Origin: Candidatus Omnitrophota bacterium
Lineage (GTDB): Bacteria; Omnitrophota; Omnitrophia; Omnitrophales; JACROU01
Direction: 5' to 3'
Length of the DNA stretch: 64,000 nucleotides
Assembly (NCBI GenBank): GCA_029261035.1
Contig: JAJDCD010000008.1
Span: 230,882 to 294,881, forward strand
The translations under genes and the position numbers were made by a program. Shown piece after piece: positions 1 through 64,000 of this stretch (position 1 is its first letter; every line of letters begins with the position of its first letter). The notes under the pieces were generated by a model, which searched no databases, had not been told where the DNA came from, and saw nothing but the letters and a program-made list of their open reading frames with translations.

Positions 1-827
1 ATTGCTTTTAGAATATCATTCAAAGTAGATTTCTCTTCTCTAAATACCAAATGCTTTCCATCTTCTTGCAAGGTAACATCATATTTTTGTATCTTTTCAG
101 GAAGAGTTTGAATAGATTCTCTAACTTGTATTAACAAAGTGTCTCGATTCATTTGCTGTATTAAAGTTTCCTTCTCTTCACAAGCAATCAATTTTCCGTG
201 ATTAATAATACCAATACGACCACACAAACGTTCCGCCTCTTCAATATAGTGCGTCGTCAACAAAATGGTAACCCCTTTTTGATTTAACTTTTTTAAATAA
301 TCCCATAACTGATAACGAAGCTCTAAATCGACGCCTGCTGTCGGCTCATCTAATATTAAAATTTTAGGCTCATGCACTAAAGCTCTTGCAATTAAAAGAC
401 GCCGTTTCATACCCCCTGATAATTTTTTATAACCTAACTTTCTAGAATCCAGCAAATTAAACTGTCTCAACAATTCCTCTGCTCTTTCTTTAGCCACCTT
501 TCGGCTAAGGCCATAATAACCGCCTGTATAAAACAGTATTTGTTCTGCATTTAAAAATGGGTCGAAATTTATTTCCTGAGGGGCTAAACCAATCATCGAA
601 CGTGATTGTTTATAATTCGCTTTTACATCGTAACCAAAAACACGTATTTCACCATGATGAAAATTGGATAATCCTGTAATAGAATGAAGGGTCGAAGACT
701 TTCCAGCTCCATTAGGTCCTAAAAAACCAAAAAATTCTCCTTCATGAATTTCAAGACACAGATCATCCACAGCTTTAAAGGAACCATAATATTTTGTAAA
801 ATTAGTAATCGATAAAGCAATACTCAT
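1..827 (-). CDS. ABC transporter ATP-binding protein (partial, C-terminus beyond window start)
   Basis: Minus-strand translation from ATG at 827..825 reads MSIALSITNFTKYYGSFKAVDDLCLEIHEGEFFGFLGPNGAGKSS (Walker A), later LSGGMKRR (ABC signature) and ILDEPT (Walker B); frame stays open to position 1. Confidence 0.8.
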   Translation of the reverse strand, partial: MSIALSITNFTKYYGSFKAVDDLCLEIHEGEFFGFLGPNGAGKSSTLHSITGLSNFHHGEIRVFGYDVKANYKQSRSMIGLAPQEINFDPFLNAEQILFYTGGYYGLSRKVAKERAEELLRQFNLLDSRKLGYKKLSGGMKRRLLIARALVHEPKILILDEPTAGVDLELRYQLWDYLKKLNQKGVTILLTTHYIEEAERLCGRIGIINHGKLIACEEKETLIQQMNRDTLLIQVRESIQTLPEKIQKYDVTLQEDGKHLVFREEKSTLNDILKA

Positions 828-4558: not shown

Positions 4559-4823
4559 TCCTAAATCACCTTCACTAGACAACAAATGCCTTTATCCCAA
4601 TCCAAAATTAAAACCCCAACAATAATAATACTTTCGTTATTTAATTAATAACGAAACACCCTAAACCCCAGAAACAATAGTTGCTCGATGCAACTCTTGT
4701 TTCAACCACCTAACACCCCACACATGTTTACAACTCTAAAGAACAAGTGCGTATCCTCGCCGCGAGTTGCGCAAGCCAAAGGCCGAGCATGTCTGAGCGC
4801 CGAGGATATGCACTTGTTCGAAC
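4559..4823. repeat. Intergenic structured repeat element, copy 1 (candidate ncRNA or hairpin-targeting element)
   Basis: About 265 bp shared with 14331-14600: identical hairpins TTTCGTTATTTAATTAATAACGAAA and GTTGCTCGATGCAAC, conserved core CCGCGAGTTGCGCAAGCCAAAGGCCGAGCATGTCTGAGCGCC flanked by an 18-bp stem whose sequence differs between copies but stays complementary. Confidence 0.6.
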
Positions 4824-4996
4824 GCCCCTTAACATCCACCAACACAACCAAAACAGTCCTATATTATACATGAAACAAACAGATTACCGGAAGCAGTCTA
4901 TAAGAAAATTAATACCAGGTAGGTTAAATGAGTTAAATCCCATAAATCACCTAAAATAAAGCCTAATTCTAGGTGCGAATCCCATATTTAAAGCAT

Positions 4997-14330: not shown

Positions 14331-14600
14331 CCTAAATCCTATCCAAACACTCTCAGAACTGACAACGCCTTTATCCCACTCCACAAATAAAATTCCTAAA
14401 AATAACAATGCGTTTCGTTATTTAATTAATAACGAAACACTATAAACCCAAGAAACAATAGTTGCTCGATGCAACTCTTGTTTCAACCCCTAACACCCCA
14501 CAAAAGTTATTAACTTAAAGGAAAATGGAATATTTCCGCCGCGAGTTGCGCAGCCCAAAGGGCGAGCATGTCTGAGCGCCGGAAACATTCCATTTTCCGA
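14331..14600. repeat. Intergenic structured repeat element, copy 2
   Basis: Second copy of the 4559-4823 element; stem GGAAAATGGAATATTTCCG / CGGAAACATTCCATTTTCC encloses the same conserved core. Confidence 0.6.
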
Positions 14601-14621
14601 CTCACCCCAATAACTCCCCCG

Positions 14622-16808: not shown

Positions 16809-16998
16809 TCAGCCTCTCAAAATAAGCACAATTACATTAAGTATTAATAAAATAACAAGTTATACAAATTATACCCTTTTATATGGAAAACAAAAAGAGC
16901 TGTTGTCATTCCGAAAAGAGTAACAGCGCATGTCCACCATCATGTTGGATGGAAAAAATATCGTAGAGATTAAACGAAAATACATAATAAGTCCCTCA

Positions 16999-17048
16999 GA
17001 CAGGCCCGGGCCTCTTATTTTCGAAAAAAGGAGGCCCGGGCCTAAATG
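16999..17048. repeat. Quasi-palindromic repeat with two AGGCCCGGGCCT palindromes (copy 1)
   Basis: AGGCCCGGGCCT at 17002-17013 and 17032-17043 around central TTTCGAAA; same unit at 17479-17528; minus-strand reading gives hairpin plus T-run just after the gene stop (terminator-like). Confidence 0.6.
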
Positions 17049-17420: not shown

Positions 17421-17478
17421 CCCAAACTCCCTTCTAGTTAAATGAAATAATTCAGAGACATTATACACACCACCCCAA

Positions 17479-17528
17479 AACAGGCCCGGGCCTGTTTTTT
17501 TCGAAATATTCAGGCCCGGGCCTAAATG
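17479..17528. repeat. Quasi-palindromic repeat with two AGGCCCGGGCCT palindromes (copy 2)
   Basis: CAGGCCCGGGCCTG + T7 (17481-17500), TTTCGAAA, second AGGCCCGGGCCT at 17512-17523; direct repeat of 16999-17048 bracketing the gene. Confidence 0.6.
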
Positions 17529-61069: not shown

Positions 61070-62590
61070 TTACTCTAGCAATTCTTCTCGAAACAAAGTT
61101 CCTCTGCCCAAAACACAATCAGGATCAAATGCTTTTTTAATTTGAATCATTTCTTTAATCGCTTCTTCCCCATACATCATCTCTAAATAAGGTACTTTAA
61201 TTTTCCCAATACCGTGCTCCGCAGAAACAGTCCCTTTTAAATCAATCACTTTTTTCATCCATTTTTTATAAAGCTCTAACGCAACATCAAATTCCTTCTG
61301 GCTCTTAGGCATCAAATTCACATGCAAATGATTATTCCCGATATGACCAAAAGTAGCCGCCTGTAAACCAACTTCATTAATCGTCATTCGATAATAAAGC
61401 ATCATCTCTTCTAAGGCTTCATCCGGCACAGCCATATCTGTCGCAATTTTTCTAAATCCTCTCCTAGACATTATTTCATTAATCACCACAGGGACCTCAT
61501 GTCGAAAAGCTATCATCTCCTCATGTTTCTCTCGTGTTGTACCAACCCACGACTGATCTATTATCGCCCGGTATATTTCCATCAACTCAAACCAAGATTC
61601 CAACACACGATCTTCTGATCCATCGGTTATTTCTTCCTCAACAAACAAAGCTGAATTCGCTTGTTCAGGAATACGCTTAAATTTACCTCTTATAAAATCC
61701 AAAGAAAAGGAATCAAAGTATTCCAACGCTCTCGCATTCGTTTTACTTTTCGCTTCCCTTACACACTTCAAAACATCATCTTCATTTTCAAAAAAAATCA
61801 TTAAACTGACAAATTTCTCAGGCAAAGGAATTAAATTAAGTTCAACTTCAGAGATAACTCCAAGAGTCCCCTCTGAGCCAATAATAAGATCGATTAAATC
61901 CATCTTATCAGTCACATAATAACCAGCTGCGTGTTTTATGGGGGGCATACAATAGCTTGGAATCTTAAAAGAAGAAGTTGTTTGATCTAATCGTTCTAAA
62001 TAAATTTCGTCATTAGATGAAACTATATATTGCCCTCGCTTTAAGACTAAAACTTCTCCACTGCTCAGGACAAGTCTCAACGACTTCACGTGTGGACGCG
62101 TAGCTCCATACTTATAAGATCTGGCTCCAGAAGCATTCGTAGCAACAGTGCCTCCGATCCACGCACTTCTCTCCGTGGGGTCTGGTGTATAGAACAACCC
62201 CTTCGACTCCGCATAGTCTTGAAAATCTTTTAGGAGAACTCCTGGTTCTACAAACGCTGAGGTATCTGTTCCCCTTAATATAATCTCCGAATAGTTATTT
62301 AATTTTTCTAAGGTAAGAATAGCCCCCTTTTCAGGAACCGCCGCTCCAGTTAACCCTGTCAAAGCCCCTTGAATAGTTAAAGGCTCTTTCCTTGCCGAAG
62401 TTTCTTTTAATACCTGCGAAATTTGAGACTCACTATGAACAAAAAAGAGAGAATTGCCATCCCCTTTAAAATTGGATGCATCCAACAAATAATTTTGGAA
62501 TATAGTTTTATCTTCTTTTTTTAGAATAGGAGGAAGTTGACTTTCATTCTTTTTTAATTTAGGAGCTTCTAAAGGAACTTGTATCTTCAT
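61070..62590 (-). CDS. FAD-linked oxidase (PCMH-type FAD-binding, D-lactate dehydrogenase/GlcD-like)
   Basis: FAD_binding_4-like N-terminal domain (GALTGLTGAAVP, GGTVATNASG) and C-terminal oxidase domain; 506 aa. Confidence 0.75.
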   Translation of the reverse strand: MKIQVPLEAPKLKKNESQLPPILKKEDKTIFQNYLLDASNFKGDGNSLFFVHSESQISQVLKETSARKEPLTIQGALTGLTGAAVPEKGAILTLEKLNNYSEIILRGTDTSAFVEPGVLLKDFQDYAESKGLFYTPDPTERSAWIGGTVATNASGARSYKYGATRPHVKSLRLVLSSGEVLVLKRGQYIVSSNDEIYLERLDQTTSSFKIPSYCMPPIKHAAGYYVTDKMDLIDLIIGSEGTLGVISEVELNLIPLPEKFVSLMIFFENEDDVLKCVREAKSKTNARALEYFDSFSLDFIRGKFKRIPEQANSALFVEEEITDGSEDRVLESWFELMEIYRAIIDQSWVGTTREKHEEMIAFRHEVPVVINEIMSRRGFRKIATDMAVPDEALEEMMLYYRMTINEVGLQAATFGHIGNNHLHVNLMPKSQKEFDVALELYKKWMKKVIDLKGTVSAEHGIGKIKVPYLEMMYGEEAIKEMIQIKKAFDPDCVLGRGTLFREELLE

Positions 62591-63234
62591 TTTTTCTTCG
62601 TTTGCGTAGATGCCTTCATCAACCCCTCGGCTTGGGGGGGAAGAAAACCAGAATAGCCATGATGTCTTTCTGTTAATTCAAGAACCGTAAATGCTTTACC
62701 ATCCTTAACGTCTGCTTTTGTGAAAATTTGTCTTAAATTGCTTCTTGGTTCCCCAACAATATCTCCAGCAAACTCGACTCCTTTCTTTTTTAGGTGCTCA
62801 ATAGATCCATCAATATCATCAACTAATACAGCGATATGGTGAATAACATTATCACTAAACGCATCCACCCAACCAGGAATCACAGATGGTTTTCCACGCT
62901 CACCATCATAAGCTTGGTCAATAAACAAAGCAGGAAAACCAGGCTTTCTTAAAACACGAGCCCACCAATCGTCAAAACTAATCAACCCCTTCTCCCCAAC
63001 CTCGTTATCCCACTCAAATCCCAAGGCGATAAATTCTTCGGAGCGTTTATAAACATCATGGGTTCTAAAGGTTAAATGATCCACTATAGGTCTCAGTCCA
63101 ATCCCTAGACTATAAAGATGTTCAGAGATAATTTGAGCCGCTGAGTTATTTTGAATAAATTGCTCAACATACTTTGCAATAATCTCTTCAACATTATCTA
63201 CAGAATGATAATTGTCACTCATATCCCACCTCAA
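62587..63234 (-). CDS. Hypothetical protein (possible metal-binding His cluster, VOC/DUF1338-like)
   Basis: 215 aa; HLTFRT and VIHHIAVLVDDID motifs; family assignment uncertain. Confidence 0.3.
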   Translation of the reverse strand: MRWDMSDNYHSVDNVEEIIAKYVEQFIQNNSAAQIISEHLYSLGIGLRPIVDHLTFRTHDVYKRSEEFIALGFEWDNEVGEKGLISFDDWWARVLRKPGFPALFIDQAYDGERGKPSVIPGWVDAFSDNVIHHIAVLVDDIDGSIEHLKKKGVEFAGDIVGEPRSNLRQIFTKADVKDGKAFTVLELTERHHGYSGFLPPQAEGLMKASTQTKKK

Positions 63235-63333
63235 ATAATTAGTTTATTTCTTTGTTGCAAAATTTGACAACTTGAGTAAAATATCAGCCTCTTTACTCAA
63301 TTGTAGATGAGATTTGAGTTTAGAGCAAATGTA

Positions 63334-63410
63334 GGGGGCGTAGCTCAACTGGTTAGAGTACCTGACTGTCGATCAGGATGTTGCGGGTTCGAGTCCCGTC
63401 GCTCCCGCCA
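63334..63410 (+). tRNA. tRNA-Asp (anticodon GTC)
   Basis: Acceptor GGGGGCG/CGCUCCC, D arm GCUC-AACUGGUUA-GAGU, anticodon stem CCUGA/UCAGG with loop CUGUCGA, T arm GCGGG-UUCGAGU-CCCGU, encoded CCA. Confidence 0.85.
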
Positions 63411-63428
63411 TATTTAGAACATAAAAAA

Positions 63429-63456
63429 GGCCATCCACATAGGATGGCTTTTTTTA
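63429..63456 (+). terminator. Rho-independent terminator after tRNA-Asp
   Basis: Stem GCCATCC (63430-63436) / GGATGGC (63442-63448), 5-nt loop, then T7; A-tract upstream makes it potentially bidirectional. Confidence 0.7.
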
Positions 63457-63465
63457 TGTCTAAAT

Positions 63466-63484
63466 GGGAGCGACGGGACTCGAA
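63466..63484. repeat. Exact inverted copy of the tRNA-Asp 3' end (19 bp)
   Basis: GGGAGCGACGGGACTCGAA is the reverse complement of tRNA-Asp positions 63388-63406 (TTCGAGTCCCGTCGCTCCC), 60 bp downstream of the tRNA. Confidence 0.8.
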
Positions 63485-63576
63485 AAGAACGACGCCAAAT
63501 CTATCACGCTGAAATAAATAAAAATCTGACTCAATGTCAGGTTATTATTTATTTAAGACTTTACAAGGAGTGAATG

Positions 63577-63750
63577 GCCGACCTGGAGTAAGTGCTTACG
63601 ACTAGTAAGTCACGAACGCAAGGCGCCGAGTCCCCGATTGTCGGATAACTTTTTTAAGGCTTAACGAGAAAGGAACAGCCGCCCTGAAGTAAGCTCTTAC
63701 AACAAGCAAGTCACAAACCCAAAGCTCCTAGCCCCTCAATTATCAAATAA
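63577..63750. repeat. Two diverged tandem copies of a roughly 73-bp element (candidate sRNA pair or att-like repeat)
   Basis: Unit 1 63577-63649 and unit 2 63677-63750 align at about 75 percent identity (GCCGaCCTGgAGTAAGtgCTTACgACtAGtAAGTCACgAAC...), each with GTAAG/CTTAC inverted motif. Confidence 0.5.
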
Positions 63751-63777
63751 ATTTTCTATCTCTATTCAAAATAAAAC

Positions 63778-64000
63778 CTAAAGAATCCCATTCACCAACA
63801 CATTAAAAACATGCGCTCCTGGAATATTACTTACTAATTGCAATGAAAGTATTTGATTCAAATTAACTCCTGCTGCAAAAACAATAGTTGGATCCAATAT
63901 CCAATACTGCGTTCCTGCCAAAATGCCTGTTAATAAAATATTAACCCTATTTCCATTTACATCCGTTATTTCTAGACGAACTTCACTTAACGTAGATGAG
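63778..64000 (-). CDS. Hypothetical protein, C-terminal fragment (N-terminus beyond window end)
   Basis: Minus-strand frame open from window end to TAG at 63780-63778; C-terminus ...ILAGTQYWILDPTIVFAAGVNLNQILSLQLVSNIPGAHVFNVLVNGIL. Confidence 0.3.
   Translation of the reverse strand, partial: SSTLSEVRLEITDVNGNRVNILLTGILAGTQYWILDPTIVFAAGVNLNQILSLQLVSNIPGAHVFNVLVNGIL

Follow-up and report, generated by a model that had tools for sequence, protein, structure and literature searches.

The last part of the window (the whole stretch of DNA that was analysed, 64,000 nt) contains a tRNA-Asp gene with a VOC/glyoxalase-family gene on one side and, beyond a non-coding spacer, the 3' end of a giant repeat-protein gene on the other (Table 1). 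GC content was 36% both in the window and in its coding regions. The C-terminus encoded by the cut-off giant gene reads ...NVLVNGIL*, and the coding part present in the window matched internal repeats of the giant proteins of related loci (blastx, E-values down to 4e-6). The spacer itself yielded no blastx match to the giant proteins of the relatives. No promoter-like site was found in positions 63411-63777. The open reading frames (ORFs) of the spacer were at most 44 aa long, and the two that were looked up (44 and 35 aa) were absent from the collection records.

Table 1. Features in and around the tRNA-Asp spacer, with positions in the window.
Feature	Position	Strand	Details
VOC/glyoxalase-family gene	62587-63222	-	Conserved in relatives; flanks the tRNA gene opposite the spacer
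Sigma-70-like promoter match	63255-63282	+	Between the VOC gene and tRNA-Asp
tRNA-Asp(GTC)	63334-63410	+	CCA encoded; ARAGORN and Rfam RF00005, 68.6 bits
Non-coding spacer			367 nt between tRNA-Asp and the giant-gene stop; searched for promoters, ORFs and repeats
Near-palindrome	63388-63484	.	97 nt; sequence count, repeat search, RNA fold; left arm 63388-63436, loop ACATA 63437-63441, right arm 63442-63484
Bidirectional intrinsic terminator (predicted)	63419-63459	.	A-run (63423-63428), GCCATCC (63430-63436)-ACATA-GGATGGC (63442-63448), T-run (63449-63455)
Inverted tRNA-Asp copy	63466-63484	-	Reverse complement of tRNA nt 54-72 (63388-63406); not a tRNA gene
Second A/T-flanked hairpin	63509-63557	.	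TCTGAC-TCAAT-GTCAGG; repeat search and terminator prediction
Tandem unit 1	63544-63644	.	101 nt; core 63566-63640, 56% GC; GTAAG 63588-63592, CTTAC 63595-63599
Tandem unit 2	63645-63745	.	101 nt; 74% identical to unit 1; core 48% GC; GTAAG 63689-63693, CTTAC 63696-63700
Giant repeat-protein gene, 3' end	63778-64000	-	Stop codon 63778-63780; runs off the window

Relatives of the locus were found with the VOC gene and its protein as anchor. The protein had one exact match, and the remaining relatives shared at most 72% identity with it. Four relatives were compared at tRNA-Asp: L002 (a 2.17-Mb JGI contig, VOC identity 72%), L005 (GCA_973787085.1, 68%), L089 (GCA_975849895.1, 66%), and L090 (an ENA contig, 64%). 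The tRNA-Asp sequences of the window and L002 are identical. L002, L005 and L089 share one gene order, with the giant gene convergent to tRNA-Asp, the VOC gene next and an FAD-linked oxidase gene beyond it. The giant-gene products of these loci end in ...VMVNGLG* (L002), ...VTLNGIQ* (L005), and ...YVNGIQ* (L089, by reading of the sequence), and the motif ...V.VNG(I/L)x* is shared with the window. The gene at the window end is the positional orthologue of the L002 (4267 aa) and L005 (2920 aa) genes convergent to tRNA-Asp. The spacer between tRNA-Asp and the giant gene measured 158 nt in L002, 87 nt in L005 and 14 nt in L089, versus 367 nt in the window. A scan of genome contigs by alignment with the VOC protein returned nothing closer than 59% identity (Omnitrophota and Nitrospinota MAGs). 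ARAGORN detected no tRNA gene in these 80 scanned loci (L009-L088), so tRNA-Asp is not adjacent to the VOC gene there.

The giant genes (window 63778-64000 and beyond, L002 1-9541, L005 834-9596) consist of many diverged repeats of 50-75 aa. Their products range from 2920 to at least 4267 aa in the relatives, and only faint precomputed Pfam marks are on record for them. The closest named genomes for the gene neighbouring the giant gene were Omnitrophota MAGs (55-59% identity). The downstream neighbour of tRNA-Asp is different in L090, where a small ORF starting with MYIVYILISKIDPSRYYIGIT... (positions 1-250, minus strand) takes the place of the giant gene. By reading, this ORF looks like a GIY-YIG nuclease, and it may represent mobile DNA beside the same tRNA in another lineage.

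Two hairpins with terminator characteristics lie in the spacer. The first, between the convergent tRNA-Asp and giant genes, has the features of an intrinsic terminator on both strands, that is, a GC-rich stem-loop followed by a T-run (63423-63455). The minus-strand terminator was predicted directly, and the plus strand aligned to the terminator parts of leader models in Rfam. The second hairpin was also terminator-like on both strands (63523-63543 on the plus strand, 63540-63526 on the minus strand) and probably ends the transcript of the giant gene. Going by this arrangement, the second hairpin and then the tRNA terminator would halt a giant-gene transcript before it could enter the tRNA gene in antisense.

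The first-pass annotation had described the 19 nt at the 3' part of tRNA-Asp as recurring in inverted orientation, with the terminator hairpin enclosed between the two arms. Repeat search bore out both statements: the arms are 19 nt long, 100% complementary and 59 nt apart, and the terminator lies between them. The arm spans exactly the T-loop together with the 3' strands of the T-stem and acceptor stem. Its GC content is about 68%, versus 36% for the window. By our own arithmetic, about 5e-5 such repeats would be expected by chance (64,000 x 200 position pairs x 4^-19). No further copy of the 19-mer was present in the 64-kb window, and neither ARAGORN nor Rfam identified a tRNA at the inverted copy.

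The complementarity does not stop at the 19-mer but runs inward to the loop of the terminator, a continuation that the first-pass annotation had missed. The resulting 97-nt near-palindrome matches at 42 of the 43 aligned positions, as counted from the sequence, with a single mismatch. Outward from the ACATA loop, GCCATCC pairs with GGATGGC, the A-run with the T-run, CAT with ATG, and ATTTAGA with TCTAAAT, followed by the 19-mer. The left arm consists of tRNA nt 54-76, the short spacer and the left half of the terminator. The right arm is without GCCAT, which comprises the discriminator, CCA and a T, and is also short of a single A. A transcript running from the tRNA through position 63500 was predicted to fold at -88.2 kcal/mol (z = -10.9), with the 3' half of the tRNA drawn into the long hairpin. 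The proposal that the inverted copy could pair with the tRNA 3' half in a precursor is consistent with this in silico fold, but such pairing requires read-through of the intervening terminator. As the T-run at 63449-63455 precedes the antisense arm, properly terminated tRNA transcripts would lack that arm.

The history of the near-palindrome was approached through L002, the relative that retains the terminator together with its left flank (AAATTTAGGCATAAAAAAAGGC..., given also as AAATTTAGGCATAAAAAAAGGCAACC...GGTTGCCTTTTTTTAT). The right flank of L002 (ATTATGTTTTGCGC; TATGTTTTGCGC...) is not the inverse of the L002 left flank. In the window, the right flank ATGTCTAAAT matches the reverse complement of the L002 left flank ATGCCTAAAT, and the right arm is therefore the derived one. 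Alignment of the window with the reverse-complemented L002 spacer reached a score of 44, versus 17.2 +/- 2.4 for shuffled sequences (none of 300 attained 44) and 28 for the forward alignment. The sequences of L005, L089 and L090 are without the copy, and alignment of the L005 spacer showed no homologous terminator. A comparison of tRNA-Asp loci among relatives had been suggested earlier; neither the inverted 19-mer nor the tandem units described below were present in any of the four, and no cargo and no extra copies of the units were found, which are the sequence-level outcomes that the first-pass annotation had named as refuting its reading. We conclude from these alignments that the terminator and its left flank are ancestral and that the right arm in the window is a derived, lineage-specific inverted duplication.

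The relatives carry lineage-specific insertions of their own upstream of this tRNA, made of palindromic or tandem repeats. Between the VOC gene and tRNA-Asp, L002 (9870-10000) carries GTCATCCCGGACTTGATCCGGGATCC with an inverted partner, and L005 (9830-10000) carries repeated TAGTCGCGATTTTA(A/G)TCGCT motifs in both orientations. L002 additionally has a hairpin-forming insert of 66 nt between tRNA-Asp and the terminator. The spacers around tRNA-Asp turn over quickly across the clade.

Template switching at hairpins creates and extends reverse-complement stems and keeps them perfect (Monttinen and Loytynoja 2022, PMC8794818; Lavi et al. 2018, PMC5941160). As the simplest reading of the near-palindrome, we infer a template-switch or fold-back mechanism of this kind. 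The ancestral locus would have comprised tRNA-Asp, a short spacer (ATTTAGRCAT) and the bidirectional intrinsic terminator. At the terminator hairpin, DNA synthesis would have switched template or folded back, and the left flank (the spacer and the end of the tRNA back to the T-loop) would have been copied in reverse-complement form onto the right side, by which the terminator palindrome would have grown to 97 nt. The copy would have lost GCCAT, or never had it, and would have gained one indel and one substitution. The GCCAT gap is not predicted by a simple one-step reverse-complement copy, and the gap and the 1-nt indel call for extra steps. The nearest retrievable relative has a VOC protein only 72% identical, a distance at which the ancestral right flank and an origin in a single mutation are not reconstructable. 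The ends of the copy fall exactly at tRNA positions 54 and 72, which could be a coincidence or a structural hint. Differences between the arms number zero in the 19 tRNA-derived positions and three in the remaining 24 nt or so, which is not a significant contrast: at the rate of the remainder, the tRNA-derived positions would show no difference with P ~0.12.

The right arm could instead be what is left of a second tRNA-Asp gene, convergent to the first, in which case a larger mirrored duplication would later have been truncated at the T-loop by a deletion or a downstream insertion. The axis of the palindrome lies within the terminator loop, and the order of the copy (tRNA 3' part, spacer, half terminator) is the one expected of a mirrored gene. 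However, positions 63485-63508, just past the copy, do not resemble the remaining part of the tRNA in reverse complement, two tRNA-Asp genes were found at this locus in no relative, and a gapped pattern describing convergent tRNA ends 44-74 nt apart found no match in the metagenome and viral collections. We regard this origin as unlikely; it is distinguished from the preferred inverted duplication only by the original length of the copy.

Further along the spacer lie two head-to-tail units. A diverged tandem repeat with units of about 73 bp and about 75% identity had been reported here; the repeat is real and the identity holds (74%), but the unit is about 101 nt long. The period is 101 nt, with similarity trailing off at about position 63752. 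The units are identical at 73 of 99 aligned positions (17 transitions and nine transversions; Jukes-Cantor distance 0.32), and their local alignment score was 63, versus 13.6 +/- 2.1 for shuffles. Tandem Repeats Finder left the array unreported, as it is too diverged. The GTAAG/CTTAC inverted motifs that had also been noted were present in both units. Judged by eye, the hairpin with its T-run at the unit ends resembles the second hairpin, and this resemblance is confined to that part.

No relative of the units was found in any of the searches. Comparisons with the tRNA on both strands and with the segment upstream of the units showed no significant similarity, and comparisons with the spacers and giant protein of the relatives showed none. 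Rfam returned no family at E-values up to 10, and there was no match in phage or plasmid records. The rest of the window contained no further copy. An nhmmer profile of the units found none in 772 kb (the window and 91 related loci), and a pattern of 22 conserved unit bases gave zero matches in the metagenome and viral collections.

Several candidate identities for the units were examined and discarded. They are not tRNA pseudogenes: ARAGORN and Rfam call no tRNA in them, and neither strand aligns significantly with the tRNA. A coding remnant was ruled out as well: every frame is stopped in at least one unit; mismatches in the unit cores split 4/8/9 over the codon phases, showing no periodicity; and blastx matched the true coding part only. 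Three apparently synonymous differences at period 3 in CTTACGACTAGTAAGTCA were dismissed as a coding signal, being synonymous on both strands. A third unit upstream (63443-63543) was excluded for lack of significant similarity to the other two, and homology to the 66-nt insert of L002 for lack of a significant alignment.

GC-rich stretches in AT-rich genomes can mark structured RNA or foreign DNA. The GC content of the unit cores exceeds that of the genome (36%) and that of most intergenic regions in the window, which fits structured RNA, foreign DNA or chance, and because of it we kept some probability for a functional reading. Under such a reading, the units would be a pair of lineage-specific, GC-rich structured RNAs, either small RNAs or hairpins that protect the giant-gene 3' UTR, and the inverted copy would serve as an extended hairpin against read-through or as an antisense trap for mis-terminated tRNA precursors. 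Consistent with this are the motifs kept in both units, the long imperfect hairpins into which the single units fold on the minus strand (z = -1.3 and -2.1), and the 21-pair minus-strand hairpin obtained with RNAalifold, in which eight one-sided changes keep G-U pairs. The 19 unchanged tRNA-derived positions of the copy and the predicted locking of the tRNA 3' half in a read-through precursor point the same way.

Against these observations, the consensus fold energy was no better than that of column shuffles on either strand (z = +0.21 on the plus strand and -0.44 on the minus strand, a comparison of two sequences only and of low power). Compensatory changes on both sides of a pair were absent on the minus strand, and the two on the plus strand fell in a weak structure of -4 kcal/mol. 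The units are served by no promoter-like site; a weak terminator, consisting of a 4-bp hairpin, ATAAC and a T-run, is all that unit 1 has, and unit 2 lacks one altogether. Neither the relatives nor the collections searched yielded a homologue, and with a strong terminator between the tRNA and its antisense copy, few transcripts would contain both. A functional role of this kind is quite unlikely in our judgement. The suggestion that the units are paralogous small RNAs is unsupported: no promoter-like site, no significant shared structure and no copy anywhere searched speaks for it. If the units are transcribed at all, their place in the gene order would make them the 3' UTR of the giant gene, and we infer that they lack a function of their own. 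A joint version, in which the units are RNAs processed from the minus-strand 3' end of the giant gene and the tRNA segment is kept identical as a fail-safe hairpin that would block antisense read-through into the tRNA or trap precursors missing the terminator, is very unlikely.

The first-pass annotation had also raised the prospect of an integrative element at this tRNA. In that case, the 19-mer would be the attR/attL-like remnant of an element that had integrated at tRNA-Asp, become inverted and decayed, and the units would be leftover DNA of that element. The 3' halves of tRNA genes are classic integration targets. The 19-mer occurs in 25 viral contigs, one of which (L099, the only clearly flanked element) carries two direct copies about 9.7 kb apart. 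The units are more GC-rich than the genome, and the spacer of the window is 200-350 nt longer than those of the relatives. However, the copy in the window is inverted rather than direct and lies just 59 nt from the intact tRNA. It ends at nt 72 and continues into a copy of the local spacer and terminator, so that the block of identity, without the discriminator and CCA, omits the true 3' end of the tRNA and is unlike an att core. In all the viral contigs but L104, a GTC anticodon arm precedes the 19-mer, which is thus part either of a complete tRNA gene or of a long att block; the tRNA-Asp att blocks found in viral contigs are direct repeats that reach back to the anticodon arm.

The DNA between tRNA and giant gene tells against an element too. 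Its 367 nt hold no integrase, no cargo and no ORF with a homologue, and with the giant gene as the ancestral neighbour, there is no room for an island or integrase between that gene and the tRNA. In phage and plasmid databases, the only match to the spacer was a 43-nt terminator-like one, to two Bacillus plasmids, which we discarded as chance. An adjacent island, which had been left open, is contradicted by the giant gene being a conserved convergent neighbour in L002, L005 and L089 with only 367 nt of non-coding DNA before it. The units are not att-like repeats either, being adjacent to each other and flanking nothing. We accordingly rejected the island, integration-scar and att readings, the scar being highly improbable. 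The earlier idea of a recombination scar at the tRNA survives loosely, as a local inverted duplication, but not as an inverted integration, given the missing cargo and the conserved neighbour.

An assembly or amplification artefact, that is, a chimeric fold-back in a metagenome-derived genome, is very unlikely. The source appears to be uncultured, the exact VOC protein is on record for a single NCBI contig and a short Logan contig, and the latter, an independent contig of 1.2 kb, ends inside the tRNA and leaves the palindrome unconfirmed. However, the palindrome is internal to a long contig, is short, differs from fresh fold-back chimeras in being imperfect, with two indels and one mismatch, and has flanks on both sides that are syntenic with those of the relatives.

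Taking the comparisons together, we consider it probable that two ordinary local duplications, one inverted and one tandem, enlarged a fast-changing spacer in this lineage. The first would be the inverted copying at the terminator; in the second, a segment of about 101 nt in the probable 3' untranslated region of the giant gene would have been duplicated head to tail long ago and would then have drifted. Both repeats are real and far beyond chance, but they are ordinary. On present evidence, the locus should be annotated neither as a hotspot of integration nor as an island border or small-RNA locus. It offers a natural case of a terminator hairpin that inverted copying has lengthened into an adjacent gene, in a spacer between tRNA-Asp and the giant gene that shows fast turnover in a poorly sampled lineage. 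Should the units prove to be expressed, they would represent a new RNA specific to the lineage; nothing measured requires this.

Two other non-coding repeats were observed elsewhere in the window. An element of about 240 nt is present in two copies on the minus strand (4585-4830 and 14364-14609), which sit in gaps of 480-490 nt flanked by unrelated housekeeping genes, one between an EVE-domain gene and gshA, the other between an MMPL-family gene and maf. Its minus-strand consensus fold has 54 pairs, including a hairpin of some 30 pairs that encloses a conserved loop of about 35 nt; the stem differs between the copies yet stays paired, as both partners have changed in nine of the pairs. It is followed by the invariant hairpins GAAACAAGAGTTGCATCGAGCAACTATTGTTTC and TTTCGTTATTAATTAAATAACGAAA. 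The first copy had no Rfam match at E-values up to 1, and neither the 91 related loci nor the viral contigs yielded a copy of the element. Its features suggest a structured RNA not described before or a mobile hairpin element, which makes it a more intriguing case than the tRNA-Asp repeats. The second repeat is a 56-nt element with two copies 480 nt apart (16993-17048 and 17473-17528; 84% identical), in which paired AGGCCCGGGCCT palindromes surround a T/A-rich centre, within an intergenic region of 928 nt.

Among known systems, the attL/attR sites of prophages and islands that integrate into tRNA genes likewise place a duplicate of a tRNA 3' part beside the intact gene, and the exact 3' end seen here belongs to a tRNA-Asp that serves integrated elements in viral contigs. 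The window departs from such sites in that its copy is inverted, 59 nt off and only 19 nt long, has no discriminator, CCA, integrase or cargo, and stands before a conserved gene. Pairs of the PrrF1/PrrF2 type are tandemly duplicated small-RNA genes. They share with the window two head-to-tail intergenic units, each roughly 100 nt long, in which the core is conserved and the flanks have diverged, whereas the units described here are without a promoter-like site, convincing terminators, significant conserved structure or homologues elsewhere. As in bidirectional Rho-independent terminators between convergent genes, an A-run, a 7-bp GC-rich stem, a 5-nt loop and a T-run are present here, and are kept in L002. 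At this locus, however, the palindromic arms reach 25-30 nt past the A/T runs into the tRNA, and a second terminator-like hairpin follows 50 nt further on. The remaining comparison is with inverted duplication by template switching or fold-back (Ripley model; PMC8794818, PMC5941160). The present case departs from it in having a nearest relative too distant for tree reconstruction, a 5-nt gap (GCCAT) and a source that is in part a tRNA gene. As in that model, an adjacent reverse-complement copy lengthens and perfects a pre-existing hairpin, and the state of the window is derived relative to an outgroup, L002, that has the short hairpin only.
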